A stretch of 13,069 nt of DNA from a virus (Duplodnaviria; Heunggongvirae; Uroviricota; Caudoviricetes), in IMG/VR virus record IMGVR_UViG_2778261166_000004; one strand, written 5' to 3'. The notes under the pieces were generated by a model. That model searched no databases and was not told the origin of the DNA. It saw nothing but the letters and a program-made list of their open reading frames with translations. The position numbers and the translations under genes were made by a program. Each line of letters opens with the position of its first letter. The stretch's first letter is position 1. Positions 1-13,069 of this stretch are shown here, one piece after another.

Positions 1-1260
1 ATGAAGCTCAACGCCAGACAGGTCGAGACCGCAAAGCCAAAAGACAAAACCTACAAAATGGCCGATGGTGGTGGTTTGTATCTTGAGGTTTCGGCCAAAG
101 GTTCCAAATACTGGCGCATGAAATACAGACGTCCCTCTGACAAAAAAGAGGATCGTCTCGCTTTTGGTGTTTGGCCTACTGTGACGCTTGCTCAGGCAAG
201 AGCAAAACGCGATGAAGCTAAAAAGCTTTTAGTACAGGGCATAGACCCAAAAGTCGTACAAAAAGAAGCTCAGGCCGAGAATTCGGGGGCATATACTTTT
301 GAAACTATCGCCCGAGAATGGCATGCCAGTAACAAGCGCTGGAGTGAAGACCATCGAGCGCGCGTTCTTCGCTATCTTGAGCTTTATATCTTCCCTCATA
401 TCGGTTCGTCCGACATTCGGCAGCTTAAAACCAGCCACCTGTTAGCCCCGATTAAAAAAGTTGATGCCAGTGGCAAACACGATGTCGCTCAGCGCCTGCA
501 ACAGCGCGTCACAGCCATTATGCGTTATGCCGTACAGAACGATTACATCGACTCAAATCCAGCCAGCGATATGGCTGGTGCACTATCGACAACCAAAGCG
601 CGCCATTATCCTGCTTTACCTTCTAGCCGGTTCCCTGAGTTTCTTGCACGTCTTGCTGCATATCGTGGTCGCGTAATGACGCGGATTGCGGTTGAGCTTT
701 CCTTACTAACTTTTGTGCGTTCCAGTGAGTTACGTTTCGCGCGTTGGGATGAGTTTGATTTCGATAAATCTCTCTGGCGAGTACCTGCAAAACGAGAAGA
801 AATTAAAGGAGTGCGTTATTCGTACCGTGGCATGAAGATGAAAGAAGAGCATATCGTTCCGCTTAGTCGGCAAGCGATGATTTTGCTAAACCAGTTAAAG
901 CAGATTAGTGGTGATAAAGAACTGCTTTTTCCGGGGGATCATGACGCAACTAAGGTTATGAGTGAAAATACAGTAAATAGCGCATTGCGTGCGATGGGCT
1001 ATGACACGAAAACCGAAGTTTGCGGGCACGGGTTTAGAACGATGGCGCGTGGAGCATTAGGGGAATCAGGCTTATGGAGTGATGATGCGATTGAACGTCA
1101 GCTAAGTCACTCAGAACGTAATAATGTACGTGCTGCTTATATTCATACATCTGAGCATTTAGACGAAAGGCGTTTAATGATACAGTGGTGGGCAGATTAT
1201 TTAGATAGAAATAAGAAAGAAAGTATTACACCATATGATTTTGCTAGACAACTTAAATAG
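1..1260 (+). CDS. int: P4-type tyrosine integrase (site-specific recombinase)
   Basis: 419-aa ORF. The N-terminus carries the P4-integrase arm-binding signature (MKLNARQVETAKPKDKTYKMADGGGLYLEV...KYWRMKYR). The C-terminal catalytic region has HGFRTMARG (His-x-x-Arg) and a downstream Tyr in AAYIHTSEHL. It sits at the edge of the element next to the presumed tRNA attachment site outside the window. Confidence 0.92.
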   Translation: MKLNARQVETAKPKDKTYKMADGGGLYLEVSAKGSKYWRMKYRRPSDKKEDRLAFGVWPTVTLAQARAKRDEAKKLLVQGIDPKVVQKEAQAENSGAYTFETIAREWHASNKRWSEDHRARVLRYLELYIFPHIGSSDIRQLKTSHLLAPIKKVDASGKHDVAQRLQQRVTAIMRYAVQNDYIDSNPASDMAGALSTTKARHYPALPSSRFPEFLARLAAYRGRVMTRIAVELSLLTFVRSSELRFARWDEFDFDKSLWRVPAKREEIKGVRYSYRGMKMKEEHIVPLSRQAMILLNQLKQISGDKELLFPGDHDATKVMSENTVNSALRAMGYDTKTEVCGHGFRTMARGALGESGLWSDDAIERQLSHSERNNVRAAYIHTSEHLDERRLMIQWWADYLDRNKKESITPYDFARQLK

Positions 1261-1266
1261 TATTTT

Positions 1267-1304
1267 AACCTAGCCAGAATTTTTGTAGTCTCGCTGGCTA
1301 GGTT
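1267..1304. terminator. Perfect 11-bp inverted repeat (aacctagccag / ctggctaggtt) between convergent int and cassette genes; probable bidirectional terminator
   Basis: Seen directly: stem 1267-1277 pairs with 1294-1304 around a 16-nt loop, flanked by A/T-rich sequence. It lies in the 54-nt gap between the int stop (1260) and the minus-strand gene end (1315). Confidence 0.5.
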
Positions 1305-1314
1305 AATTTAAAAG

Positions 1315-1899
1315 CTAATCATTCACATCAAGAGTTAAGAGTGCGTGCATTCTTTTAACAATCATAATGATATTCAAAATTAAATGTACGCAAACATATA
1401 TTATGAGTGGGCATAAAAAATAGTATAACACATTTAATTTTAGAGTTGTGTTTATTATGCTGACATAATATTCATGTGTTTTGCCGTAAAAGAATCCTGA
1501 TTGATTGACAGGAAACAGTGATACTATAAAACACAACACGACTAACAAAACTCCACATAAAATTGAATAACAAATGTTATAATAAAGTTCAGTGAGTAAT
1601 GCTTTCTTTGATTCATAGAATGTATCAATATCTTTTCTTTGTCTTATTTTTGATTCTTGATCATATACTAAAACAAGAACGCTAAGCAGTAATGCTGTTA
1701 GTATTGCACTGAAATTAACTAATAATGATATTAAATCTTTTGTTATACCACTTCCTAGGAGTGAGAATGCGGCAGAAATAATAAATGGTAGTATTATGAA
1801 TGTAAATATATCCCATAAACTGATCTTATTAGTGTCAGCATTTTTTAAAGTTCTGAAGTGGCCTATAAGAACTTCGCATATATTTATCTTTGAACTCAT
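1315..1899 (-). CDS. Small integral membrane protein (four predicted transmembrane helices); candidate effector of the cargo cassette
   Basis: 194-aa ORF with four long hydrophobic stretches (approx. residues 27-49, 56-79, 106-128, 155-181) separated by short charged loops. Its ATG overlaps the stop of the upstream gene (TAATG) and AGGAG lies 9 nt upstream, indicating translational coupling. The DNA is strongly AT-rich compared with the P4 backbone. Confidence 0.75.
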   Translation of the reverse strand: MSSKINICEVLIGHFRTLKNADTNKISLWDIFTFIILPFIISAAFSLLGSGITKDLISLLVNFSAILTALLLSVLVLVYDQESKIRQRKDIDTFYESKKALLTELYYNICYSILCGVLLVVLCFIVSLFPVNQSGFFYGKTHEYYVSIINTTLKLNVLYYFLCPLIIYVCVHLILNIIMIVKRMHALLTLDVND

Positions 1900-2825
1900 T
1901 ACGCTCTCCTTATAGTAACACCACGATATAACAACTGTATATATTCCATGATAATAACATCAACAAAATTATTTAGTGATGCTATTTCCGGCATGCCATC
2001 ATAAAAAACAACTTGTTCTTCATCAAATAAAATTTCACATACAGCTCCCCTTGCTGTTGTTCCAATATGAAAAGTTCTTTTTCTGCCATTATCTAATTCA
2101 ACAACTGTTTTTACTGTTTCTCCATATTCTTTAAGGACTTCAACGAGTTGATATTGCTCCGAGCCTCTGGAGAAATAGTCTCGAAGTCTTCCAAGTCCTG
2201 CATTTCGAGGCGGTTTGATAATTAATTCTTGCTCGTTATGGCCTAGCTTTTTGGCTTGTTCAGCTACATCTGTAATGCCATGGAATTTAGTTACCTTGAT
2301 TTCTTTGGTAATGGCATCCATCCATTTTTCAATCGCTTTATCATACGCCAGAGGGTTCATTTGAATCACTAAGTTGGTAACCCTCTTGAAATAATCTGAA
2401 AACAATCTCATAAAAAGAGTTTTTATACCATCACCTCTATATGTATGTAAAAACGCCATGCCTTCATTTACATCTCTAGGAATATAAAAATGTATGTAAT
2501 ATCTAATTATTTCAGCATTGTTTTTTGTCTTTTCGAAGTCTACATCGCCAGTTTTAATGTTTATTATGTCGGTCTTTGTTCCGTAATATCCAGACTCGAA
2601 CCATCCATATATTTCTCGATTGTTGTTATCGCGTGTAATCTCATTAAAACGAAAAACTTGTTTGGTTTCTTCAGAAAGGATATATTCTTCATTATACTGC
2701 TTAATAAATTCATCGAGTATATCAAGTAAATCATGTTCTCTGATGTTACTCAGTGCTGAATAACGTTGTTCTTTGGCTGCGTTCGGATTGTAGCAGCGGA
2801 AAAGATACGGTGCTAAAGCGTGCAT
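1899..2825 (-). CDS. Hypothetical soluble protein (308 aa), first gene of the cargo cassette; candidate sensor/regulator partner of the membrane protein
   Basis: Uninterrupted 308-codon ORF with a strong RBS (GGAGA, 6-nt spacer) before the ATG at 2825. The product is Lys/Glu/Tyr/Asn-rich with no hydrophobic segments. I see no Walker A, HNH, PD-(D/E)xK or nucleotidyltransferase GS...DxD motif. It is AT-rich and co-oriented with, and overlapping, the downstream membrane gene. Confidence 0.75.
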   Translation of the reverse strand: MHALAPYLFRCYNPNAAKEQRYSALSNIREHDLLDILDEFIKQYNEEYILSEETKQVFRFNEITRDNNNREIYGWFESGYYGTKTDIINIKTGDVDFEKTKNNAEIIRYYIHFYIPRDVNEGMAFLHTYRGDGIKTLFMRLFSDYFKRVTNLVIQMNPLAYDKAIEKWMDAITKEIKVTKFHGITDVAEQAKKLGHNEQELIIKPPRNAGLGRLRDYFSRGSEQYQLVEVLKEYGETVKTVVELDNGRKRTFHIGTTARGAVCEILFDEEQVVFYDGMPEIASLNNFVDVIIMEYIQLLYRGVTIRRA

Positions 2826-2900
2826 TGTTATCTCCTTTTTTAATGGAGATTAGCAACTTATCACTATAAGATCAACGAACGTTCAATATGGAAAGGGATA
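2826..2900 (-). promoter_or_regulatory. Putative promoter region of the cargo operon
   Basis: AT-rich 5' region just upstream of the operon RBS. On the minus strand there is a TTGAAC ... TGATAA/TATAGT arrangement, but the spacing is not canonical. The call rests mainly on position. Confidence 0.3.
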
Positions 2901-3059
2901 ATTCTGCTTGGTATTTTTCTTTTAATAATATTGGGGTGCTTTAGTGCGATATTTTGATGATTAGTGTGTGTTCGGCAGTAGAAGCTATCCATAGGCAGTG
3001 ATGTTTCTGCATATAGAATGTTTTAATTATCAAACACATAATTTTCGATTGCGCGCGCA

Positions 3060-3078
3060 GTGCTTTCCCCGCCTCGCC
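3060..3078 (-). other. cos site: 19-nt P2/P4 cohesive-end sequence (GGCGAGGCGGGGAAAGCAC on the minus strand)
   Basis: The plus strand reads gtgctttccccgcctcgcc, the exact reverse complement of the recalled P2/P4 cohesive-end sequence. It lies between psu and the cargo cassette, where cos sits in P4. A GC-rich hairpin follows at about 3079-3100. Confidence 0.85.
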
Positions 3079-3185
3079 CGCCCGCTTTGCGGGGCGGTTT
3101 TAATGCAGTTGCACTGACACGCTCAGGCCGTGCCGGGAATGGCGCGGTATACAGAAAATGAGGCAGGAAAACGCATGCAAAGCCA

Positions 3186-3216
3186 TGCACCTTATCGATG
3201 CATGGCTTTTTTCAGT
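3186..3216 (-). terminator. Hairpin downstream of psu (gccatgca...tgcatggc) with flanking T/A runs; possible late-operon terminator
   Basis: 8-bp inverted repeat around a 9-nt loop, 30-60 nt beyond the psu stop. It is followed by a T-run on the plus strand and by TTTGCATGCGTTTT on the minus strand. Orientation is ambiguous. Confidence 0.4.
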
Positions 3217-3242
3217 AAAAACAGGCGGATTTTCGGGGAATT

Positions 3243-3815
3243 TTACACAGACTGACGTGATGCCAGTTGCGCACTTTTACGCGAAAAAATCATGTTCTGC
3301 GCAGGAGTGAATTTTTCACGGCTGTCATCCACCGAAGCCGCGTCAGGCCTGAATCCGATGGTCGTTAAAATGTCGCTATCCTGTGCGGAATAATTAATTT
3401 TTTCCCCCTTCGCAAGCCAGGACAGAAGGGCTTCACGCAGGGCATCTGTGGCACGCTGTATGGCACAGTTTCGGGCAATGGCCGTCAGCTCACTGTAGCC
3501 CATCAGCTCCGGTGCCAGTGCCGCCGCCAGTGCTGTGCCGTGCTGCTGCATAAAATCATTCAGCCGGTCGCGGATGCTGATGTGCTGAACGGCTTCATGC
3601 GAACGAATATAACGACCGGCGGCCTGATTCACCTGCCATTTTCTGACTTCGATAATATTGCGTAATTCGTCCAGGCGACTGACGTTTCTGCCTTCTCCTG
3701 ACAGAAGCCGCAGGTATTCCTGTTCGGCCGCTGCCAGCTCATTTTTGCGTTGCAGCCATGCTGCTTTGTTATTCTGACAGGTGTCAAAGGCCTGCTGTAA
3801 GGCTGTGCTTTCCAT
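3243..3815 (-). CDS. psu: Psu (polarity suppression / capsid decoration protein, Rho antagonist)
   Basis: 190-aa ORF, the length of P4 Psu, last in the sid-delta-psu order next to cos. The N-terminal sequence MESTALQQAFDTCQNNKAAW matches my recollection of P4 Psu. Not verified by alignment. Confidence 0.88.
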   Translation of the reverse strand: MESTALQQAFDTCQNNKAAWLQRKNELAAAEQEYLRLLSGEGRNVSRLDELRNIIEVRKWQVNQAAGRYIRSHEAVQHISIRDRLNDFMQQHGTALAAALAPELMGYSELTAIARNCAIQRATDALREALLSWLAKGEKINYSAQDSDILTTIGFRPDAASVDDSREKFTPAQNMIFSRKSAQLASRQSV

Positions 3816-3888
3816 CGTTATCTCTTTCTCATCATGCTGAAGAATAAAAATACGGTGTGCGGCGACGGCCGGTGTTAACCGGCAGCCC

Positions 3889-4389
3889 TCATTCCAGACG
3901 CAGCGAATATGATTGTGTTTTTAAGCGTACTGGCGGCAGTTCCTGTTTTTCATGCAGGCTTTCTGCCAGTTCGTCCGGCGTGACCGGGCGGACAATGAAA
4001 CGGTTGATGGTCTGAAGCGTTTTAAACACCAGACCACAGCCCGGATCCGTGCACACATAAAAACGCTCGGTGACTTCCTGAGACAGACGCCTCGATGTTC
4101 TTGACAGTGCAAGGCCTTTACATCTCCGACAACAATATCCGGTAACAAGCATTCTTTTCGGGCGTTTCATACTGCCGGAGGCTGACGTCAGTGAATCGCG
4201 GTATCTCTGTTTGCCTGAAATGTATTCCATTCCTGAATCTTTACTGTCAGAGAAAAAGCTTTCACTCGCTTCAAATGTCGCAGAGCAATAAATATTCCGG
4301 CACTGTGCAATCATTATCTTGGTGCCATCGTCCATGAAATGTGCGCGGCGGGTGTGAGCAACATGTCCACACGACGGGCAGTAAATCAT
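3889..4389 (-). CDS. delta: Delta (Ogr-family zinc-finger late transcription activator, duplicated Ogr-like domains)
   Basis: 166-aa ORF, the length of P4 Delta. It has two Ogr-like Cys4 units (CPSCGHVAH...CRNIYCSATF and CCRRCKG...CTDPGCGLVF). Its ATG overlaps the sid stop (ATGA), and it lies between sid and psu. Confidence 0.9.
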   Translation of the reverse strand: MIYCPSCGHVAHTRRAHFMDDGTKIMIAQCRNIYCSATFEASESFFSDSKDSGMEYISGKQRYRDSLTSASGSMKRPKRMLVTGYCCRRCKGLALSRTSRRLSQEVTERFYVCTDPGCGLVFKTLQTINRFIVRPVTPDELAESLHEKQELPPVRLKTQSYSLRLE

Positions 4390-5120
4390 GACAGCAGTCC
4401 TCTGGCCTTAAGCTCTGCACCCTGCTGGTCTATTTTGTCCTGCCACACCTTGCGCTGTGCCGGTGTGCCTGCCACCTCATAATCCATGTGCGGGAGTGTT
4501 GCCGCTGACAGTCCGGTCAGCCGGAGAACCGGCTCGCCGGTGAGGCTGATTTGCATCTGTTTAATTTTCTGTTCCAGCGATGATTTCACCTGCTGCATGA
4601 CAGCCTTATCGGGTGCGACGTAGCCCTGATGGCCGGTGGTGTTGGCGAGCGGATTTTCCTGTACCAGGATACTCAGATGCATTGCCCGGACAAGCGCCTC
4701 ACAGGTTTCATTCAGGGCGTGTTCCAGCTCATGCTCTGCATACAGACTCAGAAGGTGATGATGTGCCTTCCGGTAGGCGGTGGCCGTGCTGTCACACGCC
4801 CCTTTCAGGCGTTCACGTTCGAAATTCAGCACCACGGCCAGATTGTCATATTCCTGTACCAGCTCCCGGCGTGCCACGCGCTCAATGTGGCGCTGTTTCA
4901 GCTCGTCGCTCAGGACACCACCGGCTGCACGAAAGGCCGTGCGCCAGTCGTCAGCGTCGTTTCCGTCGGCCTGCGCCAGCGCATTTTTTTCCTGCTCTGC
5001 CCGTTCAATGGCCGTGACGGTCTCATCCATCAGGCGGGCGTTCTCAAGATGGGCGGCTCTGGCCTTTTCCAGTTGTGCCAGCGCGGGTTGCAGATATTCA
5101 GGGATGGTGTTGTCAGACAT
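4386..5120 (-). CDS. sid: Sid (external scaffold / capsid size determination protein)
   Basis: The ORF track gives 250 aa from a GTG at 5138. The ATG at 5120 has a strong RBS (GAGGAG, 7-nt spacer) and gives 244 aa, the P4 Sid length, starting MSDNTIPEY. It is the first gene of the late operon. Confidence 0.88.
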   Translation of the reverse strand: MSDNTIPEYLQPALAQLEKARAAHLENARLMDETVTAIERAEQEKNALAQADGNDADDWRTAFRAAGGVLSDELKQRHIERVARRELVQEYDNLAVVLNFERERLKGACDSTATAYRKAHHHLLSLYAEHELEHALNETCEALVRAMHLSILVQENPLANTTGHQGYVAPDKAVMQQVKSSLEQKIKQMQISLTGEPVLRLTGLSAATLPHMDYEVAGTPAQRKVWQDKIDQQGAELKARGLLS

Positions 5121-5146
5121 TTTCCGGCTCCTCGTCACTTCAGGTT

Positions 5147-5210
5147 AAGAAAATTGTGACGTACACCGGACAACAACACGACGCATTGCAGATGTGCCAG
5201 CCCTGACACA
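5147..5210 (-). promoter_or_regulatory. Psid-type late promoter with two TGT-N12-ACA Delta/Ogr binding dyads
   Basis: Seen: TGT-N12-ACA at 5193-5210 and again at 5155-5172. If transcription starts near 5147 (27-nt leader to sid), these are centred near -55 and -18. That matches the recalled arrangement of P4 late promoters, which have a second Delta site near -18. Confidence 0.55.
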
Positions 5211-5289
5211 GGAGACTCATCCTCAGACCGGCAAGCCAGGAAAAGGTCGCAGGAAAAACCGGCTTACTGTTTGTTTTTTTATATTTTAC

Positions 5290-5393
5290 TGTTCACCTCT
5301 GTTCACCATAAGAAAAAAGATAAGTAATACAGTAATTTAAAGGGTGAACAATCGCAGTAATGACTGTTCACCGTCTGTTCACCACTGTTCACC
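5290..5393. repeat. ori-like cluster of type I iterons (octamer TGTTCACC, six copies in both orientations)
   Basis: Seen: TGTTCACC at ~5290, 5300, 5365, 5376, 5386 and inverted GGTGAACA at ~5343, followed by an AT-rich tract (5400-5480). It lies between the divergent late promoters, ~4.8 kb from the second iteron cluster, consistent with P4 ori versus crr. Confidence 0.7.
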
Positions 5394-5551
5394 CGTTCAT
5401 GGACTTTTTGTGCTGTTTATTACTTTTTATTTTTATTAATTAACTGAAATAAATAAGAAAAAACAATTTGTATTTCACTATAATTTTTTCCAGCTCCTTC
5501 CAGAGCGTTTTAAAGCTATCTGGCGCTGATGTACAAAAAATACACAGTCAT

Positions 5552-5620
5552 TGTAAGGCTGCCGGAACAAATCCCCCCTGTTGCGTCTGCTGAAAATATT
5601 CACAAAATAAAGCGCTACCC
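5552..5620 (+). promoter_or_regulatory. PLL-type late leftward-operon promoter (single TGT-N12-ACA Delta dyad) upstream of vis
   Basis: TGT-N12-ACA seen at about 5551-5569 (tgtaaggctgccggaaca). This predicts a start near 5614, ~58 nt before the vis ATG and ~400 nt upstream of the sigma70-like promoter at 5974-6003, matching the recalled PLL-PLE spacing in P4. The -10 is weak, as expected for an activator-dependent promoter. Confidence 0.45.
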
Positions 5621-5671
5621 GAAGCCGGACGGACTTATCCGGTGCTGTATGGACATTAACGAGGTAGCCCG

Positions 5672-5938
5672 ATGCAAGCTGTTTTTTCTTCCCCGTCTCC
5701 CGCCCCTGTGACGCCACTGATGCCGCTGCCGGACATCACGCAGGAGCGTTTTTTACGTCTGCCGGAAGTGATGCACCTGTGCGGCCTGTCACGCTCGACC
5801 ATCTACGAACTCATCCGTAAGGGGGAATTTCCGCCGCAGGTGAGTCTTGGCGGTAAAAATGTGGCCTGGCTGCACTCTGAAGTCACCGCATGGATGGCCG
5901 GACGCATTGCCGGACGCAAACGGGGGTACGACGCATGA
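5672..5938 (+). CDS. vis: Vis (AlpA-family helix-turn-helix regulator / excision directionality factor)
   Basis: 88-aa ORF with the AlpA-type HTH signature ([27 protein letters not shown]). It is the first gene after the PLL-like promoter. GAGG lies ~7 nt upstream of the ATG. Confidence 0.8.
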
Positions 5939-5973
5939 TGATGCCCGCTCTGCAAAAACTCCCTTTTTCTGGC

Positions 5974-6003
5974 TTGCCTTTTTCCGGCATTTGCGGATAT
6001 AGT
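5974..6003 (+). promoter_or_regulatory. Sigma70-like promoter (PLE-like early promoter): TTGCCT, 18-nt spacer, TATAGT
   Basis: Seen directly at 5974-5979 and 5998-6003. It lies just downstream of vis and ~400 nt downstream of the PLL-like site. Confidence 0.5.
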
Positions 6004-6066
6004 TTTTCCGCTGCCGCAAAATCGGCAGCCGGGCGTGAGAACCCGAGCAATTCACAGGCGACATAT

Positions 6067-6088
6067 GACGCGCCACGCGTCTTTTTTT
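6067..6088 (+). terminator. Intrinsic terminator (gacgcg-cca-cgcgtc followed by T7) ~60-80 nt downstream of the early promoter
   Basis: Seen: 6-bp GC-rich stem, 3-nt loop, then seven T residues. A second hairpin (gctgccg / cggcagc, 6010-6029) lies between promoter and terminator. The geometry suggests a short attenuated transcript or small RNA, as in the P4 immunity region. Confidence 0.6.
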
Positions 6089-6336
6089 GTGTCGCAATCA
6101 ATGCCACAGAGCGCCAGATTATGGTGTGGTGTGTGGTCAGTCGTGCAGATGGCATTCCGTGCATCCTGCCTGCGTCCGCTCATTATGCCGCAGAGTCAAT
6201 GGTAGCTCAGGCGGGGCAGCCTCCGGGCTGGCCGGTATCCTGTGAAGCCGGTATTCTCACCCCCGTCTGGGCTATCGCCATCGAGCGTGAGAACTCCGGC
6301 GATAGCGTTATTTGCTATTCACAGGAGGCTGCCATC

Positions 6337-6534
6337 ATGGCTACAACCCTTACCCCCTCACACCCTGAATTTGTCTTTGTGTTTGCGGCTGTCCGTCGCG
6401 CAGACCGTCATCCCCGTATCTGTATGCTTCGCACCGTCGCCGGTGATGAACGCAGTGCCCGCCGTTCCCTTGTCCGTGACTATGTGCTCTCCCTTGCTGC
6501 CCGTCTGCCGGTGGTGGAGGTGTCCCGTGCGTAA
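6337..6534 (+). CDS. Hypothetical small protein (65 aa) nested in a longer open frame (5935/6121/6199..6534)
   Basis: ATG at 6337 is preceded by AGGAGG with an 8-nt spacer. The product ([65 protein letters not shown]) looks protein-like. The same frame stays open upstream to 5890/5935 (199 aa from the ATG at 5935), but that part spans the promoter and terminator above and is Cys/Trp/Pro-rich. The true start is uncertain. Confidence 0.45.
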
Positions 6535-6814
6535 TAAAAAAGCCCCTCAGACCGTCTCAGCGCGTCATGACGCCCGTGAACACCTCAGCATTGAGGCTTA
6601 CCATAAGCTCAACCGCGCCAGCGCCGTATCCCAGTTTGTTGGGGGTGATTTGATTCACCGTGAACTCTCCGGCCTGCATCAGCTCTACATTCCGCATATT
6701 TTCAGCTACCTGAATGAAGATATTGATTTTGTGCTGAATGAACTGAAAGCCAAAGGCCTGTGCCGCGATTTTCTCGCCCAGCAGAAAGACCGGGGAGACA
6801 GGACGCATGTTTGA
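6527..6814 (+). CDS. epsilon: Epsilon (helper-prophage derepression protein)
   Basis: A GTG start at 6527 with GGAGG 9 nt upstream gives exactly 95 aa, the P4 Epsilon length. The in-frame upstream extension to 6242 is low-complexity Pro/Ser/Leu-rich and looks non-coding. The stop overlaps the start of orf151. Confidence 0.75.
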
Positions 6815-7262
6815 TTTTCCCCAGCCCGGTGAGATTTACCGTTCTGCCGGTTTTCCCGATGTGGCCGTGGTCGGCATTCTGGAAGACGGTATTCCGTGGG
6901 AAATGCCGTACCGCTGCCCGGACATTGTCTGGAACCCGTACCGCCGTAAATTCAGTATCCTTGTGCGTATCCTCGCTGACGGGCGCACCACAGACATCCC
7001 GCTGGGGCGTTTTCTGCGGGAATTTACCTGTGACCGTCCTGACCTGTTTAAACGCAGCCCCGTAAACCGGCATGCGGTACTGAAAGAAATGGCCGGAGAC
7101 CCGGAATTACAGAAATGGCGGGAGAAATATCTGGATATTTACCCGCAGGACCCTGTTCCGGTCAGCCGGGCGGCACCGGTGGCGCGGGAATGGCGGGAAA
7201 TCCCCCGCACGGAGCCTGACCCGGAAATCACACCGGATAACAGTTACCGCAATTATCTGTAA
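6807..7262 (+). CDS. P4 orf151-like protein (function unknown)
   Basis: 151-aa ORF in the conserved position between epsilon and alpha. Its start overlaps the epsilon stop (ATGTTTGA). Confidence 0.75.
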   Translation: MFDFPQPGEIYRSAGFPDVAVVGILEDGIPWEMPYRCPDIVWNPYRRKFSILVRILADGRTTDIPLGRFLREFTCDRPDLFKRSPVNRHAVLKEMAGDPELQKWREKYLDIYPQDPVPVSRAAPVAREWREIPRTEPDPEITPDNSYRNYL

Positions 7263-7397
7263 TTAAAAAACGACACCCGAAAAATTAAATGTGCGTATTC
7301 GCGCAGGGATACGCACGTCTTCAGGAGACGCAGATATGCCTTATCAGTTAATGCAACCGGCACGGAATGCAGTCATCTGTCACAGGGAGGAAAACAA

Positions 7398-7718
7398 ATG
7401 AAAACACCCTTACCGCCCGTCTTACGCGCAGCCCTTTACCGTCGCGCTGTCGCCTGTGCCTGGCTGACCGTGTGCGAACGTCAGCACCGCTACCCGCATC
7501 TCACCCTTGAATCACTGGAGGCGGCCATCGCCGCTGAGCTGGAAGGCTTTTATCTGCGCCAGCACGGTGAGGAAAAAGGGCGCCAGATAGCCTGTGCCCT
7601 GCTGGAAGATTTAATGGAATCCGGCCCCCTGAAGGCCGCGCCGTCGCTGTCCTTTCTCGGGCTGGTTGTGATGGATGAACTCTGTGCCCGTCACATAAAA
7701 GCGCCGGTACTGCACTGA
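7398..7718 (+). CDS. P4 orf106-like protein (function unknown)
   Basis: 106-aa ORF immediately upstream of alpha, with GGAGG 8 nt before the ATG. Confidence 0.75.
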
Positions 7719-7732
7719 AGGAGAACAACACC

Positions 7733-10066
7733 ATGAAAATGAACGTAACCGCCACCGTCAGCCATGCGCTCGGCCACTGGCCGCGTATTCTCCCGGCGCT
7801 GGGGATTCAGGTGCTGAAAAACCGTCATCAGCCCTGTCCGGTCTGTGGCGGGAGTGACCGCTTCCGTTTTGATGACAGGGAGGGGCGCGGCACCTGGTAC
7901 TGCAATCAGTGTGGTGCCGGTGACGGCCTGAAACTGGTTGAAAAGGTGTTTGGTGTTTCCCCGTCCGACGCGGCCACAAAGGTGGCTGCCGTGACCGGCA
8001 GCCTGCCCCCGACTGACCCGGCAGTGACGGCTGCCGCCGGTGCTGAAACAGACGCTGCCCGGAAGAACGCCGCCGCACTGGCACAAACCCTGATGGCGAA
8101 AACCCGTCCCGGAACCGGTAACGCCTACCTGACCCGCAAGGGCTTTCCCGGCCGGGAATGCCGGATGCTGACCGGCACACACAGAGCCGGTGGCGTGAGC
8201 TGGCGTGCCGGTGACCTTGTGGTGCCACTGTATGACGACAGCGGCGAACTGGTTAACCTTCAGTTAATCAGTGCTGACGGCCGTAAGCGCACCCTGAAAG
8301 GCGGGCAGGTCAGGGGCACCTGTCACATCCTTGAAGGACAGAATCAGGCCGGAAAACGTCTGTGGATAGCGGAGGGATACGCGACCGCACTTACCGTGCA
8401 TCACCTGACCGGTGAAACGGTGATGGTGGCGCTTTCTTCCGTGAACCTCCTTTCTCTGGCCAGCCTTGCCCGACAGAAGTATCCGGCCTGTCAGATTGTC
8501 CTTGCCGCAGACCGTGACCTCAGCGGTGACGGCCAGACAAAAGCCGCCGCAGCCGCAGATGCGTGTGAGGGCGTTGTTGCCCTGCCGCCGGTCTTCGGTG
8601 ACTGGAATGATGCCTTCACGCAGTACGGCGGGGAGGCCACCCGTAAGGCCATTTACGATGCCATCCGGCCACCGGCTGAAAGCCCGTTCGACACCATGAG
8701 CGAAGCAGAGTTTTCCGCCATGAGTACCAGCGAAAAGGCCATGCGTATCTATGAGCATTACGGCGAGGCGCTCGCGGTCGATGCCAACGGCCAGCTTCTG
8801 TCCCGCTATGAAAATGGTGTCTGGAAGGTACTGCCACCACAGGACTTTGCCCGGGATGTGGCCGGGCTGTTTCAGCGTCTGCGCGCGCCGTTCTCCTCCG
8901 GGAAAGTGGCCTCCGTGGTGGACACCCTGAAGCTGATTATTCCGCAGCAGGAAGCCCCCTCCCGCCGCCTGATTGGCTTTCGTAACGGCGTGCTCGACAC
9001 GCAGAACGGCACGTTCCACCCGCACAGTCCGTCACACTGGATGCGTACCCTGTGCGATGTGGATTTCACCCCGCCGGTGGACGGTGAAACGCTGGAGACC
9101 CACGCCCCCGCGTTCTGGCGCTGGCTTGACCGTGCCGCCGGTGGCCGTGCGGAAAAACGCGACGTGATTCTGGCTGCACTGTTTATGGTGCTGGCAAACC
9201 GCTACGACTGGCAGCTCTTTCTGGAGGTGACCGGTCCCGGCGGCAGCGGCAAAAGTATCATGGCCGAAATAGCCACCCTGCTGGCCGGGGAGGATAACGC
9301 CACGTCGGCCACCATTGAGACGCTGGAATCCCCGCGTGAACGTGCCGCGTTAACTGGCTTCTCACTGATACGCCTGCCGGACCAGGAAAAATGGAGCGGC
9401 GACGGAGCCGGACTCAAGGCCATCACCGGCGGCGATGCGGTGTCCGTTGACCCGAAATACCGGGATGCGTACTCCACGCACATCCCGGCGGTGATTCTGG
9501 CCGTGAACAATAACCCGATGCGCTTCACCGACCGCAGCGGCGGCGTGTCACGCCGGCGGGTGATTATTCACTTCCCGGAACAGATAGCCCCGCAGGAGCG
9601 CGACCCGCAGCTTAAGGACAAAATCACCCGCGAGCTGGCGGTCATCGTGCGTCACCTGATGCAGAAGTTCAGCGACCCGATGCTCGCCCGGTCACTGCTT
9701 CAGTCCCAGCAGAACTCAGACGAGGCGCTGAACATCAAACGGGATGCCGACCCGACGTTTGATTTTATCGGCTATCTGGAAACCCTGCCGCAGACCAGCG
9801 GCATGTATATGGGGAACGCCAGTATCATCCCGCGCAATTACCGTAAATACCTCTATCACGCCTATCTGGCCTACATGGAGGCAAACGGCTACCGGAATGT
9901 ACTCAGTCTGAAAATGTTCGGGCTGGGGCTGCCGGTGATGCTGAAGGAATACGGACTGAATTACGAGAAGCGCCATACCAAACAGGGGATACAGACCAAC
10001 CTGACGCTGAAAGAGGAAAGCTACGGCGACTGGCTGCCAAAATGTGAAGACCCTGCAACAACCTGA
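7733..10066 (+). CDS. alpha: Alpha: bifunctional primase-helicase and origin-binding replication protein
   Basis: 777-aa ORF, the P4 Alpha length. It has an N-terminal zinc-binding primase motif (CPVCGGSDRFRFDD...WYCNQCG), a TOPRIM-like acidic region (LAADRD), and a Walker A P-loop (GPGGSGKS) in the helicase domain. RBS AGGAG. Iteron clusters flank the operon. Confidence 0.95.
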   Translation: MKMNVTATVSHALGHWPRILPALGIQVLKNRHQPCPVCGGSDRFRFDDREGRGTWYCNQCGAGDGLKLVEKVFGVSPSDAATKVAAVTGSLPPTDPAVTAAAGAETDAARKNAAALAQTLMAKTRPGTGNAYLTRKGFPGRECRMLTGTHRAGGVSWRAGDLVVPLYDDSGELVNLQLISADGRKRTLKGGQVRGTCHILEGQNQAGKRLWIAEGYATALTVHHLTGETVMVALSSVNLLSLASLARQKYPACQIVLAADRDLSGDGQTKAAAAADACEGVVALPPVFGDWNDAFTQYGGEATRKAIYDAIRPPAESPFDTMSEAEFSAMSTSEKAMRIYEHYGEALAVDANGQLLSRYENGVWKVLPPQDFARDVAGLFQRLRAPFSSGKVASVVDTLKLIIPQQEAPSRRLIGFRNGVLDTQNGTFHPHSPSHWMRTLCDVDFTPPVDGETLETHAPAFWRWLDRAAGGRAEKRDVILAALFMVLANRYDWQLFLEVTGPGGSGKSIMAEIATLLAGEDNATSATIETLESPRERAALTGFSLIRLPDQEKWSGDGAGLKAITGGDAVSVDPKYRDAYSTHIPAVILAVNNNPMRFTDRSGGVSRRRVIIHFPEQIAPQERDPQLKDKITRELAVIVRHLMQKFSDPMLARSLLQSQQNSDEALNIKRDADPTFDFIGYLETLPQTSGMYMGNASIIPRNYRKYLYHAYLAYMEANGYRNVLSLKMFGLGLPVMLKEYGLNYEKRHTKQGIQTNLTLKEESYGDWLPKCEDPATT

Positions 10067-10081
10067 CCCTCATGACTCATC

Positions 10082-10107
10082 TGACCGGCATCTGCCGGTC
10101 TTTTTTT
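10082..10107 (+). terminator. Intrinsic terminator after alpha (tgaccggca-tc-tgccggtc followed by T7)
   Basis: Seen: GC-rich stem and T7 run beginning 16 nt after the alpha stop. Confidence 0.7.
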
Positions 10108-10125
10108 ATCCCTGAATTCCCCGAA

Positions 10126-10398
10126 GGTGAACAATCCACTGTTCACCCTTCACCGTATATTCACCTGTTATCACACTGAAATTAAAAGAGAAAAACGAAA
10201 GGTGAACAGTGTGAACAATCAAATCAAAAAAAACTTTTTTCTCCCTGTGTGATTTTCAGTACGGGGGATTAATCACCGGTATGAGTCACACCGGCAGAAT
10301 GCCGGAGGTGAAGAATCGAATGTTCACCCTTCACCCATTATTCACCACCTATCATACTGAAATAAAAGGAGAAAAAAGAAAGGTGAACAGTGTGAACA
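10126..10398. repeat. crr-like cis replication region: two ~77-bp direct repeats (about 10140-10216 and 10321-10398), each carrying TGTTCACC / GGTGAACA iterons
   Basis: Seen: the two copies align nearly base for base (tgttcacccttcacc...ttcacc...ctgaaat...gaaaggtgaacagtgtgaaca). An additional inverted iteron is at 10126-10133. The region is AT-rich and lies downstream of alpha. Confidence 0.7.
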
Positions 10399-10610
10399 GT
10401 TCTTTCGAAAAAAAAATTTTTATGTGGATAAAAGATGCACTGGTTTGGATCCGGGCTACGGATCCAAACTTACTGATTAAAAATTATTTAACTTTCCGAT
10501 TTATTGATGGGCTGAAAATAGATTGGTCAGAAAAACAGTGGGGGCACAAAAGGGGGCATATTTCATTGTTGTGTTTTATTATTTGTTTTTTATCATTAAC
10601 TTATTTTAAT

Positions 10611-10632
10611 GTTTGAGTCCGGCCTTCGCACC
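10611..10632 (+). other. Putative attR core: tRNA 3'-end-like sequence (gtttgagtccggccttcgcacc)
   Basis: It resembles the T-arm/acceptor end of a tRNA (GGTTCGAGTCCGGCCTTCGGCACCA-like, as recalled for tRNA-Leu leuX, the classical P4 attachment site). P4-family elements integrate into tRNA 3' ends and leave a partial copy at the far junction. Similarity is judged by eye. Confidence 0.4.
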
Positions 10633-10662
10633 TTCGCACCTTCGCACCTTCGCACCTTCGCA
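10623..10662 (+). repeat. Tandem octamer array (ccttcgca x5 perfect, plus a degenerate sixth copy to 10670)
   Basis: Seen directly. The unit is the distal end of the tRNA-like att core. Confidence 0.85.
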
Positions 10663-10866
10663 CCATCGGAACATCAATAGACATCAACGGACGTTTTTTT
10701 ATGACTGAAATCCGCGCCACACAAGGCTTTTCGCTATTTTTCGCTCAACCTAAGTCAACCTACATCAACTTACTGATGTGGATACAGCTACAGCTGCGGC
10801 TATATCCCGATTCGATAATGTTTGTACCCACACAAAACCCTTGAAAGGCTACAAGGCTGAAATTGT

Positions 10867-11052
10867 CTAAACCATAGAGATGATTTTTATGATCCAGTCT
10901 TTCTCTTGTTGAGATAGTTCCAGTTTGCTCACTCGTGTTAAGAAGGTATTGATCACCTGAACATCCGAATTGGTGAGCCTATTTAATAGAGCGGGTGGTA
11001 TACCTTTACTAACAATCGCTTTGCGGTGACTTTCGTAGTTTTTATTACTCAT
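10867..11052 (-). CDS. Hypothetical small protein (61 aa)
   Basis: ORF with GAGGA 8 nt upstream of the ATG. No family recognised. It lies outside the satellite, between attR and the HNH gene. Confidence 0.35.
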   Translation of the reverse strand: MSNKNYESHRKAIVSKGIPPALLNRLTNSDVQVINTFLTRVSKLELSQQEKDWIIKIISMV

Positions 11053-11108
11053 TGTTGATCCTCAAAAATCATTGTATGGCGGCATTGATCGTTTCCAGCA
11101 ACCTTTAC

Positions 11109-11351
11109 TTACTCACTTCGAACTGCATCCTCGTAGACTGTTCCACTACAATAATCGAAAAGGCGCGGATGTCCATTCAGGTATCCCGCTAATACGTATA
11201 GCAATAACAATGGCTTATGCGGCGCGCGCTGTTCACCCTTGTGCCAGATTTTTATATTGGCAATTGCCTGCTGTAGCGATTTACTGGAAGCCATTGATAT
11301 CCCTGGCAGTGAAATAATTGCGATCATGCTCGCAAATTTTCTGCTGTTCAA
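11109..11351 (-). CDS. Hypothetical small ORF (80 aa from TTG; 61-72 aa from internal ATGs); possibly a gene remnant
   Basis: The ORF-track start is TTG. Internal ATGs lack a convincing RBS. It is in a different frame from the adjacent 61-aa ORF, so the two could be a frameshifted remnant of one gene. Confidence 0.2.
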   Translation of the reverse strand: MNSRKFASMIAIISLPGISMASSKSLQQAIANIKIWHKGEQRAPHKPLLLLYVLAGYLNGHPRLFDYCSGTVYEDAVRSE

Positions 11352-11430
11352 GCCTGCAAGTGAAGATATATTACCTTGATCTCATTTGTTTTTTTGCTGC
11401 CTGTTCTGAGAACGTATAAGGACATTCTCC

Positions 11431-12081
11431 ATGAATAAACTCCCTGATCATCTTCCGCGGCGGTATATCATCGAAGCTATCCATTTATGGGATGCGGGAG
11501 AAACTCATCAGTTCCAGCCTGCGCGGTTGTATGAGATTGAATATCATGGCCGACGTTACCCCTCGAAGGCGATTGCTGGCATCGCAGCGACATTGATGAC
11601 GGGGACGCAATTTACCCCTGCGGATTTCACCGGCGGAATAAAATCTAAATGTGTCAAGCTACTCATAGAGCAGGGATTTCATATTCATCTGGATAAAGCC
11701 GCTGCGGCTCCCATAGCCGACGTTCTGTTCCCGGATGAGTTGCCGTCGCAGGAGACATACCTTGAAGGTGCGGCGATAAAGGTGACAGTAAACCGCTATG
11801 AACGCGATAAAAAGGCCCGAGATAAAGCGGTCGAACATCATGGATGCCAGTGCAACGTATGCGGTGTTGATCTGGTGAAGATCTATGGTGATATCGCTGA
11901 AGGCTTTATCCATGTGCATCACCTGGTGCCGCTGTCAGCCATTAAAGAGGATTACCAGCTGGATCCAGTTAATGATTTGCTGCCTGTGTACCCTAATTGC
12001 CATGCGATGTTGCACCGACGCAAACCACCGTTTACGCCGGAGCAGTTAAAAGCGCTGATGGATGCGAATAAATCAAATTAA
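11431..12081 (+). CDS. HNH endonuclease family protein with an uncharacterised N-terminal domain (possible McrA-like modification-dependent restriction nuclease)
   Basis: 216-aa ORF. The C-terminus has an HNH-type motif set (CQCNVCG...HVHHLVPLS...N...YPNCHAMLH). The N-terminal ~100 aa is unrecognised. Confidence 0.7.
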   Translation: MNKLPDHLPRRYIIEAIHLWDAGETHQFQPARLYEIEYHGRRYPSKAIAGIAATLMTGTQFTPADFTGGIKSKCVKLLIEQGFHIHLDKAAAAPIADVLFPDELPSQETYLEGAAIKVTVNRYERDKKARDKAVEHHGCQCNVCGVDLVKIYGDIAEGFIHVHHLVPLSAIKEDYQLDPVNDLLPVYPNCHAMLHRRKPPFTPEQLKALMDANKSN

Positions 12082-12088
12082 TGAACGC

Positions 12089-13069
12089 TCACCTTTCGCG
12101 CCAAAACTGCAAAATTGCTTCTACAAACTTGTCAGAAATAATCCCCCGACGGGCTGCCGTGCTGAAATGACTGCTTCGCAGTGCCGTCGTCCAGTTCTCC
12201 GGTGACCGGTACGCTGAACCGTAATATCCCGTGCTTAAATCGTCCGGGTCTTCATCAGGCGCGTTCGTCAGTCCTCTTTCACCTTGTTGCTGGAAGTCGA
12301 CGAAAATAATATTGGCTAAAACATTATTTTGATAATTGCCATAAATAACTTCATACGCATGAGGGAAATTTTCTTTCCAGTACCAGGTGGTATCGCCGCA
12401 AAACCACGGTGCGTCAGTAATATTATTAAGCTGAGAATGGTATTGTTTTAGATCCCTACGAAAGGCTTCAACCATATGATTAAAGTGTTGAGGGTGTGAC
12501 GCGTAGTCACTGGTCATTAAGTCAAATTCGCCTTGCATCCAGCATACGCCGAGGAATTTGTTATGCGGATTTTTTGCCAGTGCGGCTCGCGTTCTGCTGA
12601 CTAAATCCTGGTATAGCGGAGTATCCGTTCCCCAACGACAAGCATCATGGCTGGCTCCGTGCCGTTCTGAATATGTCCCTTCGCTGCCCGCGGTAAAAGC
12701 CGATCCGCCACGGCAACACGGAACGATGAGAACCCCTGCATTATCAGGAATAAAGGGCAGTAATTTCCGTGCTATATGCAGTGCCTGGCCAACGGTGCCG
12801 TACTGTGTTTGATGATTCGTTGCCAGAGGATGGTGATAACCCTGCATATCCTGAACATCGTGTGGGCAGTGAGTCAGTGGAATAATGTCGTTAAAGTGAC
12901 ATGACGGGCCTCCGGGATGCGTATGCGCAAATCTCGCTAATTGTTTAATTCTGGGATGAGGCGCATCTTCCCTGTCCGGTAATGGCAGTCCTTCGCCATA
13001 CGCCATGGCATTAGACTGACCAGCAACGGTAAGAATATAGTAATAATCAGGCGATATTATTGCGTTCAT
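12089..13069 (-). CDS. nanS: Sialate O-acetylesterase (NanS/YjhS-like, SASA/SGNH-type)
   Basis: 326-aa ORF whose start is at the window edge. It has a GQSN motif near the N-terminus (TVAGQSNAMAYG), typical of sialate O-acetylesterases. Length and sequence match my recollection of E. coli YjhS/NanS, which lies near the leuX/fim region. Confidence 0.7.
   Translation of the reverse strand: MNAIISPDYYYILTVAGQSNAMAYGEGLPLPDREDAPHPRIKQLARFAHTHPGGPSCHFNDIIPLTHCPHDVQDMQGYHHPLATNHQTQYGTVGQALHIARKLLPFIPDNAGVLIVPCCRGGSAFTAGSEGTYSERHGASHDACRWGTDTPLYQDLVSRTRAALAKNPHNKFLGVCWMQGEFDLMTSDYASHPQHFNHMVEAFRRDLKQYHSQLNNITDAPWFCGDTTWYWKENFPHAYEVIYGNYQNNVLANIIFVDFQQQGERGLTNAPDEDPDDLSTGYYGSAYRSPENWTTALRSSHFSTAARRGIISDKFVEAILQFWRER

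Follow-up and report, generated by a model that had tools for sequence, protein, structure and literature searches.

A probable functional P2/P4-type cos site beside the cargo cassette of a P4-like satellite prophage at leuX in Escherichia coli

The 19 nt segment at positions 3060–3078 (minus strand) of the stretch of DNA analysed here (13,069 nt, IMG/VR record IMGVR_UViG_2778261166_000004; referred to as the window) is very probably the cohesive-end segment of a functional P2/P4-type cos site, carried by an intact P4-like satellite prophage at the leuX tRNA-Leu gene of Escherichia coli. If this reading, which is built on sequence comparisons, is correct, the satellite is complete and probably mobilisable, and the cassette of cargo genes next to cos can travel between E. 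coli strains in hijacked P2 capsids.

A pattern search found GGCGAGGCGGGGAAAGCAC on the minus strand at 3060–3078, with 0 mismatches and at a single site in the window, and the plus strand at these positions reads GTGCTTTCCCCGCCTCGCC, its exact reverse complement. Both observations bear out the original prediction, which had claimed an exact P2/P4 19 nt cohesive end here and its precise reverse complement on the plus strand. There was no second site in the whole window when up to 3 mismatches were allowed. Bases 1–19 of the P4 record (NC_001609) and of the P2 record (NC_001895) are both GGCGAGGCGGGGAAAGCAC, and the P2 record annotates this sequence as cosL/cosR. The original prediction had also proposed a comparison with the cos sequences of P2, P4 and 186, and in this alignment the segment was identical to those of P2 and P4 and unlike the 186 19-mer, GGCGTGGCGGGGAAAGCAT, at 2 positions. 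On this comparison, the window 19-mer is specifically the P2/P4 allele and not the 186 allele. A chance match was ruled out, as none was found in dinucleotide-preserving shuffles of the window (0/200) and the uniform-chance expectation for an exact 19-mer in the window is ~1e-7. The segment would lie between two staggered terminase nicks, and the mature 5′ ends are predicted to be at 3078 on the minus strand and at 3060 on the plus strand, with the nick positions taken from where the P4 and P2 records end.

The functional cos unit is larger than the 19-mer and is the 55 bp core at 3053–3107 (minus strand), which in the alignment to P4 and P2 is made up of a 7 bp left arm (TGCGCGC), the 19-mer and a 29 bp right arm (TGCATTAAAACCGCCCCGCAAAGCGGGCG). 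When the P2 and P4 records were circularised, the block common to them comprised the same 29 bp of right arm, 19 bp and 7 bp of left arm, a total of 55 bp. A 55 bp cos core is attributed to Ziermann & Calendar 1990 in PMC3931495, PMC5694545 and PMC9594776, and the term as used here is based on these secondary citations and on the alignments made in this analysis. The window core is identical to that of P4 at 54/55 positions, to that of P2 at 53/55 and to that of 186 at 48/55, and every position carries either the P4 or the P2 base. The window shares with P4 (NC_001609/X51522) the 19-mer, the 29 bp right-arm core, the 164 bp spacer that separates cos from psu (97 % identity) and the orientation, but P4 has C immediately left of the 19-mer where the window has T, and beyond ~11 bp the left arm of the window is unrelated, with gop, beta and cII replaced by another cassette. 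P2 (NC_001895) and other Peduovirus prophages have the same 19-mer and the same 7 bp left arm, TGCGCGC, but P2 differs at two bases in the loop of the right-arm hairpin and is without homology outside the core. The cos sites of 186 and of loci from Enterobacter, Tatumella, Citrobacter, Kluyvera and Photorhabdus have the same architecture and the same left arm, but a 19-mer that is unlike that of the window at 2 (186) or 3 (other genera) positions.

IMG/VR was scanned for the exact 19-mer and 120 loci were kept, a sample biased toward exact cos sites. Ninety-three were P2-like, with the portal gene ~190–195 bp to the left, 20 were P4-like, with the end of psu at 167 bp on the right, and 7 were unclassified. 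The identical 55-mer was present in 8/20 P4-like loci, and the left arm TGCGCGC in 16/20 P4-like and 91/93 P2-like loci. The base at 3059, the first to the left of the 19-mer, is T in the window, in P2 and in most loci and C in the reference P4, which, with its CGCGCGC left arm, is the minority allele or outlier at this core position among the loci compared. A local alignment had suggested a 2 bp insertion beside cos relative to P4, and this was rejected as the window has the majority left arm among the 120 elements. In the P4-like loci, the sequence is conserved from psu through the 7th base left of the 19-mer and identity falls to ~25 %, the level of chance, from the 8th base; in 20/20, variability sets in no more than 8 bases from the left edge of the 19-mer. 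In the P2-like loci, conservation extends along the left arm in the direction of the portal gene, and the right arm becomes variable after ~35 bp. In P2 itself the variable hotspot (old/tin) is on the right-arm side and the conserved side faces the portal gene Q, whereas the P4-like elements have the reverse arrangement. The only DNA conserved in both the P4-like and the P2-like classes is the ~60 bp around the 19-mer.

A sample that is independent of cos, six loci found by Psu alone, was obtained in a Psu-based scan of genome contigs. In the Psu-anchored loci from Enterobacter, Tatumella, Citrobacter, Kluyvera and Photorhabdus, cos lies 167–179 bp after psu and the 19-mer is 186-like, being unlike that of the window at 3 positions. 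The left 7 bp are kept in 4/5 of these genera, with 5/7 bases retained in Photorhabdus. Relative to the window, the five loci are 76–100 % identical in the core, 65–70 % in psu nucleotides and 25–30 % in the next 40 bp, and this pattern of conservation is the signature that a functional site with a hard edge would leave.

These comparisons also bear on the alternative that the 19-mer matches by chance, or is a GC-rich hairpin or terminator that plays no role in packaging, which is extremely improbable. An adjoining hairpin at 3078–3097, which overlaps the core, does appear terminator-like on the plus strand in a scan for such structures. However, in addition to the results of the shuffles and the chance expectation, the whole 55 bp core and all of the P4 flanking genes are present, and the loci from other genera retain the 19-mer and the right half of the hairpin but not the left half. 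Hence, the hairpin is not what is being conserved. A conserved cos hairpin supported by covariation was likewise rejected, as changes in the left half are uncompensated in the other genera, where the right half and the 19-mer are fixed.

The five loci from other genera (L005–L009), with cos 167–179 bp downstream of psu, appear as P4-like satellites that carry a 186-like 19-mer, either GGCGTGGCGGGGAGAGCAT or a form ending in ATAGCAT, suggesting that the cos alleles of satellites follow those of the local helper phages. A 6.8 kb contig labelled ‘uncultured Clostridiales bacterium’ (L004, URND01000141.1) encodes a Psu 99 % identical to that of the window and includes the exact P2/P4 cos; the most likely explanation is that a contig from an E. 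coli satellite was mis-binned into a metagenome-assembled genome.

The cos site is found 164 bp past the psu stop codon, with the same spacing and orientation as in P4, and the P4 psu–cos distance was also seen in 12 or more of the P4-like IMG/VR loci and in the other genera. The remainder of the spacer on the right-arm side (3108–3242, minus strand) is 97 % identical to P4 and is 67–74 % conserved even in other genera, which is about as conserved as psu itself. A hairpin at 3174–3212, read from the sequence and bidirectional in appearance, is located just downstream of psu. On the other side of cos, homology to P4 and to most P4-like elements ends at the 8th base left of the 19-mer, at the edge of an AT-rich region (2826–3052, minus strand, GC 35 %) upstream of the cargo operon. 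The cargo region begins 8 bp from the 19-mer and, as originally predicted, the cargo adjoins cos.

Window positions 3079–10635 align to P4 11624–4075 (97.9 % identity), and positions 1–1210 to P4 3914–2704 (94 %). One of these blocks runs out where the linear P4 record ends, and the 19-mer takes up the alignment again as P4 bases 1–19; hence, the window holds a circularly permuted, that is, an integrated, P4 genome. Only P4 positions 20–2703, containing gop, beta and cII, are absent, and they are replaced by window positions 1211–3059, a region with a GC content of 30–35 % vs 50–63 % for the backbone. In tblastn searches with the P4 proteins, Int, Vis/orf88, the cI-region ORF, epsilon, orf151, cnr, alpha, Sid, Delta and Psu were 97–100 % identical to their P4 counterparts and free of internal stops, and the seven components of the P4-like core set of de Sousa & Rocha 2021 (int, psu, delta, sid, alpA/vis, epsilon and alpha) are all uninterrupted.

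The P4-type tyrosine integrase (1–1260, plus strand, 419 aa) has the Pfam domains Arm-DNA-bind_3, Phage_int_M and Phage_integrase and is 97 % identical in amino acids to residues 5–414 of P4 Int; its last ~17 codons are unlike those of P4, and nucleotide homology to P4 stops at 1210. On the minus strand beyond cos are psu, for the capsid decoration and polarity suppression protein (3243–3815, 190 aa, Pfam Psu 1e-88, 99.5 % identical to P4 Psu), delta, for the late-gene activator (3889–4389, 166 aa, Pfam Ogr_Delta, 98.2 %), and sid, for the external scaffold responsible for the small size of the capsid (4386–5120, 244 aa, 99.2 % and without stops). The ori region (5283–5616) is 87 % identical to P4 9086–9420. 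The plus strand carries orf88/vis, for an alpA-type excisionase and regulator (5672–5938, 88 aa, 98.9 % identical to P4), followed by the immunity RNA region (5997–6282), with a C4-type CI RNA at 6195–6282, its targets at 5997–6049 and isrK at 6010–6087. Rfam matches in this region, all above the gathering scores, were RF01695 (C4, 74.9 bits), RF03163 and RF01394, with the c4-a1b1 and isrK families among them. Further along the same strand are epsilon, for helper derepression (6527–6814, 95 aa, 98.9 %), orf151 (6807–7262) and orf106/cnr (7398–7718), which together span 6807–7718 and are 98.7 % and 100 % identical to P4, and the gene for the 777 aa alpha primase-helicase (7733–10066, Pfam primase and helicase domains, 98.6 %). 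The cis replication region crr, with two 120 bp repeats (10121–10421), is 96 % identical to P4 4291–4590.

The cargo cassette is present in 7/5,426 complete E. coli genomes and the cos–psu block in 2,249, and the window was compared with six cargo-bearing E. coli genomes, referred to as the relatives. In these, the element is at tRNA-Leu, beside ahr and yjgR. The 3′ end of tRNA-Leu serves as attL and is separated from int by 164 bp, the distance from the start of the attL core to that of int is 183 bp, and the circle sizes are 10,780–10,787 bp. For the window element, an excised circle of about 10,797 bp is estimated, from an attL core placed about 183 bp upstream of position 1 on the basis of the relatives, to attR at 10615, and this is 93 % of the length of P4 (11,624 bp). 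The overall length of about 10.6 kb that had originally been given was slightly low because attL lies outside the window. Its companion claim, that the size fits a P4-sized capsid, stands, as ~10.8 kb is below the ~12 kb capacity of the small capsid and in the published range for P4-like elements, which have a median of ~10 kb (Rousset et al. 2022, PMC9122126; other published sources).

The attR core at 10615–10665 (plus strand) consists of GAGTCCGG, five copies of CCTTCGCA and CCA, and is a leuX 3′ fragment in which one G is missing and an 8 bp unit is expanded. The end of P4 homology (10635) falls within it, and TRF reported a repeat of period 8 with 5.8 copies at 10623–10668. The canonical 20 bp att core is GAGTCCGGCCTTCGGCACCA, and in the window attR only 14 contiguous core bases match before the single-G form with the 5-copy, 8 bp expansion. 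The attR cores examined were those of the window (10615–10632) and of L020, L028, L032, L050, L057, L105, L130–L134 and L137–L170. One G of the tRNA 3′ end was lacking (CTTCGCACCA, not CTTCGGCACCA) from the attR of 44/45 P4-like prophages, in at least 12 downstream contexts, and every attL among the P4-like prophages examined was intact; the only attR with GG, that of L131, abuts another integrase-bearing island. The missing G was therefore rejected as a sign of a damaged att site peculiar to the window element. The 8 bp repeat, whose unit comes from the att core, varies in copy number: there is 1 copy of CCTTCGCA in the attR of 39 loci, with 2 copies in one, 3 in three, 4 in one and 5 in the window, the largest number seen, and all of the expansions sit in one leuX-downstream context.

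These features of attR raise the question of whether cos is a relic, still intact through recent arrival, in a prophage that is grounded by its altered attR or by the lack of a helper and persists as a fixed defence island. This is improbable, though it draws some support from the 5 copies of the 8 bp unit, vs 1 in 39/44 of the single-G cores, from the location of all seven copies of the element at one chromosomal site, and from the fact that copies in the lineage do become immobilised, an IS21 insertion in L134 having brought that satellite to 13.4 kb, above the ~12 kb limit. Against it, every P4 gene is intact and without stops, and each of the 55 positions of the cos core has a base that is found in functional phages. 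Furthermore, for P4-type integrases attB is reported to start in the T-loop (Klebsiella tDNA survey, bioRxiv 10.1101/2020.11.02.365908). A crossover in the T-loop would be to the left of the repeat, which would then form part of the tRNA 3′ fragment that is displaced and should be no obstacle to excision, and the attR repeat may thus be irrelevant to it. If, on the other hand, P4 Int depends on bases past core position 14, the element could be impaired in excision. Excision via a T-loop crossover would also be expected to leave a corrupted leuX, and in that case the host would depend on the tRNA 3′ end supplied by the satellite.

In two relatives, L134 (NZ_CP020107, 19199–21501) and NZ_AP042701, ISEc12, an IS21-family IS, is found between cnr and alpha, making the satellite ~13.4 kb long. 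These satellites exceed the ~12 kb small-capsid capacity and are probably immobilised copies.

A P2-family helper supplies the capsid, the tail and the terminase. With such a helper present, the functional cos proposed here would operate as follows. Through epsilon, delta and alpha, the helper would be derepressed and exploited and the satellite replicated, Int and Vis would excise the satellite as a circle of ~10.8 kb, and Sid and Psu would redirect the helper capsid protein into small capsids. The helper terminase would recognise the ~55 bp core (3053–3107) and make two nicks 19 nt apart, between 3079 and 3078 on the minus strand and between 3059 and 3060 on the plus strand, and the linear genome would be packaged, the left terminus of the mature DNA being occupied by the cargo from 8 bp inside the duplex onwards. 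This scheme follows established P2/P4 biology, including PMC9122126 and PMC6893505, and the cleavage positions, the need for a circular substrate, the dependence on a helper and packaging itself are what that biology would predict. The original prediction held that an intact cos implies that the element can be packaged. The core, its position, the P4 genes and the size all agree with packaging, but ‘implies’ is too strong, as excision and a P2-type helper are also needed. In work with cosmids, flanks beyond the cos core shifted transduction efficiency by orders of magnitude (PMC9594776), and the left flank of the window beyond 7 bp is unlike that of P4; hence, packaging efficiency is not predictable from the core.

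The cassette sits between psu/cos and int (1261–3052), in place of gop, beta and cII of P4. A defence hotspot between psu and int, beside cos, was described by Rousset et al. 2022 (Cell Host Microbe, PMC9122126), and this layout was repeated and extended by de Sousa & Rocha 2021 and in the 2026 NAR paper of de Sousa et al. The window shares with that hotspot (Rousset et al. 2022; de Sousa et al., NAR 2026) an AT-rich cargo between psu and int, by cos, that is swapped between similar elements, and nothing structural distinguishes the two. The cargo pair WP_000543069 and WP_000095574, with variants, is included in the supplementary hotspot table of Rousset et al. 2022 as ‘hypothetical + hypothetical’, and we found no record of the cassette having been tested in that table or in the main text of the 2026 NAR paper, which does not name it. 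The cos site, its position by the psu–int hotspot and the presence of the cassette there are therefore already known, and their recovery here is a correct rediscovery. The cos result provides context for judging the neighbouring cargo and opens no new question; possible additions are the junction at cos described below, the cargo of a protein with a RexA-type fold and a membrane protein, and the variable 8 bp repeat in attR.

The cassette includes two genes on the minus strand. Gene A (1899–2825) encodes a soluble protein of 308 aa, whose predicted fold is closest to that of lambda RexA, and gene B (1315–1899), immediately downstream of A, with its start overlapping the stop of gene A by 1 nt, encodes a 194 aa predicted four-helix membrane protein. 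The translation and an AF2 model of B (pLDDT 80) have four long hydrophobic helices. The A/B pair are neighbours in many Gammaproteobacteria, as judged by consecutive locus tags. Neither protein matched a Pfam, NCBIfam or PADLOC family, and both matched only PHROG families of unknown function. The resemblance to lambda RexA–RexB lies in the RexA-type predicted fold of A and in the four-transmembrane partner encoded directly downstream. In contrast, there is no detectable sequence similarity, with an hhalign comparison of the cargo families to lambda RexA/RexB giving a probability of 0.1 %, and B is 194 aa vs 144 aa for RexB. A sequence-profile search of PDB with the cargo proteins gave no match at E≤10, a Foldseek search with A against PDB gave no meaningful match (TM ≤0.24), and a search of BFVD with B did not retrieve RexB. 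In predicted fold and layout the cargo looks like a two-component exclusion module of the Rex type, though the sequence comparisons do not place it in that family.

When the window was compared with the six relatives, int and the cargo (1–2900) were 99.86–100 % identical, the ahr/leuX host flank was 94.5–96.6 % identical, the segment from cos to sid 98.4–99.5 % and the regulatory region 96–99 %. In one relative, the idn operon is inserted upstream in the host DNA. In the host flank, variable sites continue to a point just short of the tRNA, so that the left boundary of the conserved block is leuX/attL. A near-identical block between divergent host flanks indicates that the segment from attL to cos has spread recently across diverse hosts, in support of the horizontal spread that had been predicted: the attL–int–cargo–cos block is 99.86–100 % identical in the six genomes, with flanks that are 3.4–5.5 % divergent. 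This evidence of recent mobility also argues against cos being a relic. The near-identical block, from attL to cos, corresponds to the left arm of the mature P4 genome.

Relative to the six relatives, the window has only 1–5 differing sites in 1–3059 and then 8–9 in 3091–3223, and for the comparison with L131 the contrast in the density of differences is significant (Fisher p = 2e-11). This jump past cos places a recombination junction within 2985–3090, an interval that contains cos. When the six relatives are compared with one another, differences to the right of cos begin only at 3306 or further on, inside psu. A further role for cos, compatible with its role in packaging, can be put forward tentatively, namely that it is also a boundary, and perhaps an initiator, of cargo exchange, with the cut or injected cohesive ends serving as a recombination substrate for swapping the cosL–cargo–int–attP segment. 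It is in keeping with this that the window junction falls in an interval that contains cos, that the conserved block is bounded on the left by leuX/attL, and that variability begins so close to the 19-mer in all 20 of the P4-like loci; the same idea was proposed by Rousset et al. 2022 (PMC9122126). However, only one junction, that between the window and the rest, maps by cos, as the differences among the relatives start at or beyond 3306. Moreover, any exchange of non-homologous cargo requires a crossover in the first stretch of homology, which starts at cos, and a junction there is therefore expected without any special role for the cos ends. A 2026 NAR study also found almost no exchange between P2 and P4 despite their common cos. 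The junction is compatible with the cohesive-end idea of Rousset et al. and is not a test of it. Slightly more doubtful again is the proposal that the mobile unit is not the whole satellite but the left arm, cosL–cargo–int–attP, bounded by the integrase crossover and the terminase cut, with the cos ends as its entry point, and that this arm would ferry a highly diverged, uncharacterised RexAB-like module.

The DNA beyond attR (10636–13069) is not P4 DNA. It starts with the leuX terminator region, followed by an ORF for a 216 aa HNH endonuclease with weak similarity to type IV/phosphorothioate-dependent restriction enzymes (11431–12081) and a gene for a SASA-family sialate O-acetylesterase that is nanS-like (12089–13069). 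In the relatives, the HNH/nanS-like region consists partly of pseudogenes and is followed by nanM and nanC. Overall, 10636–13069 has the appearance of a relict of an older leuX island.
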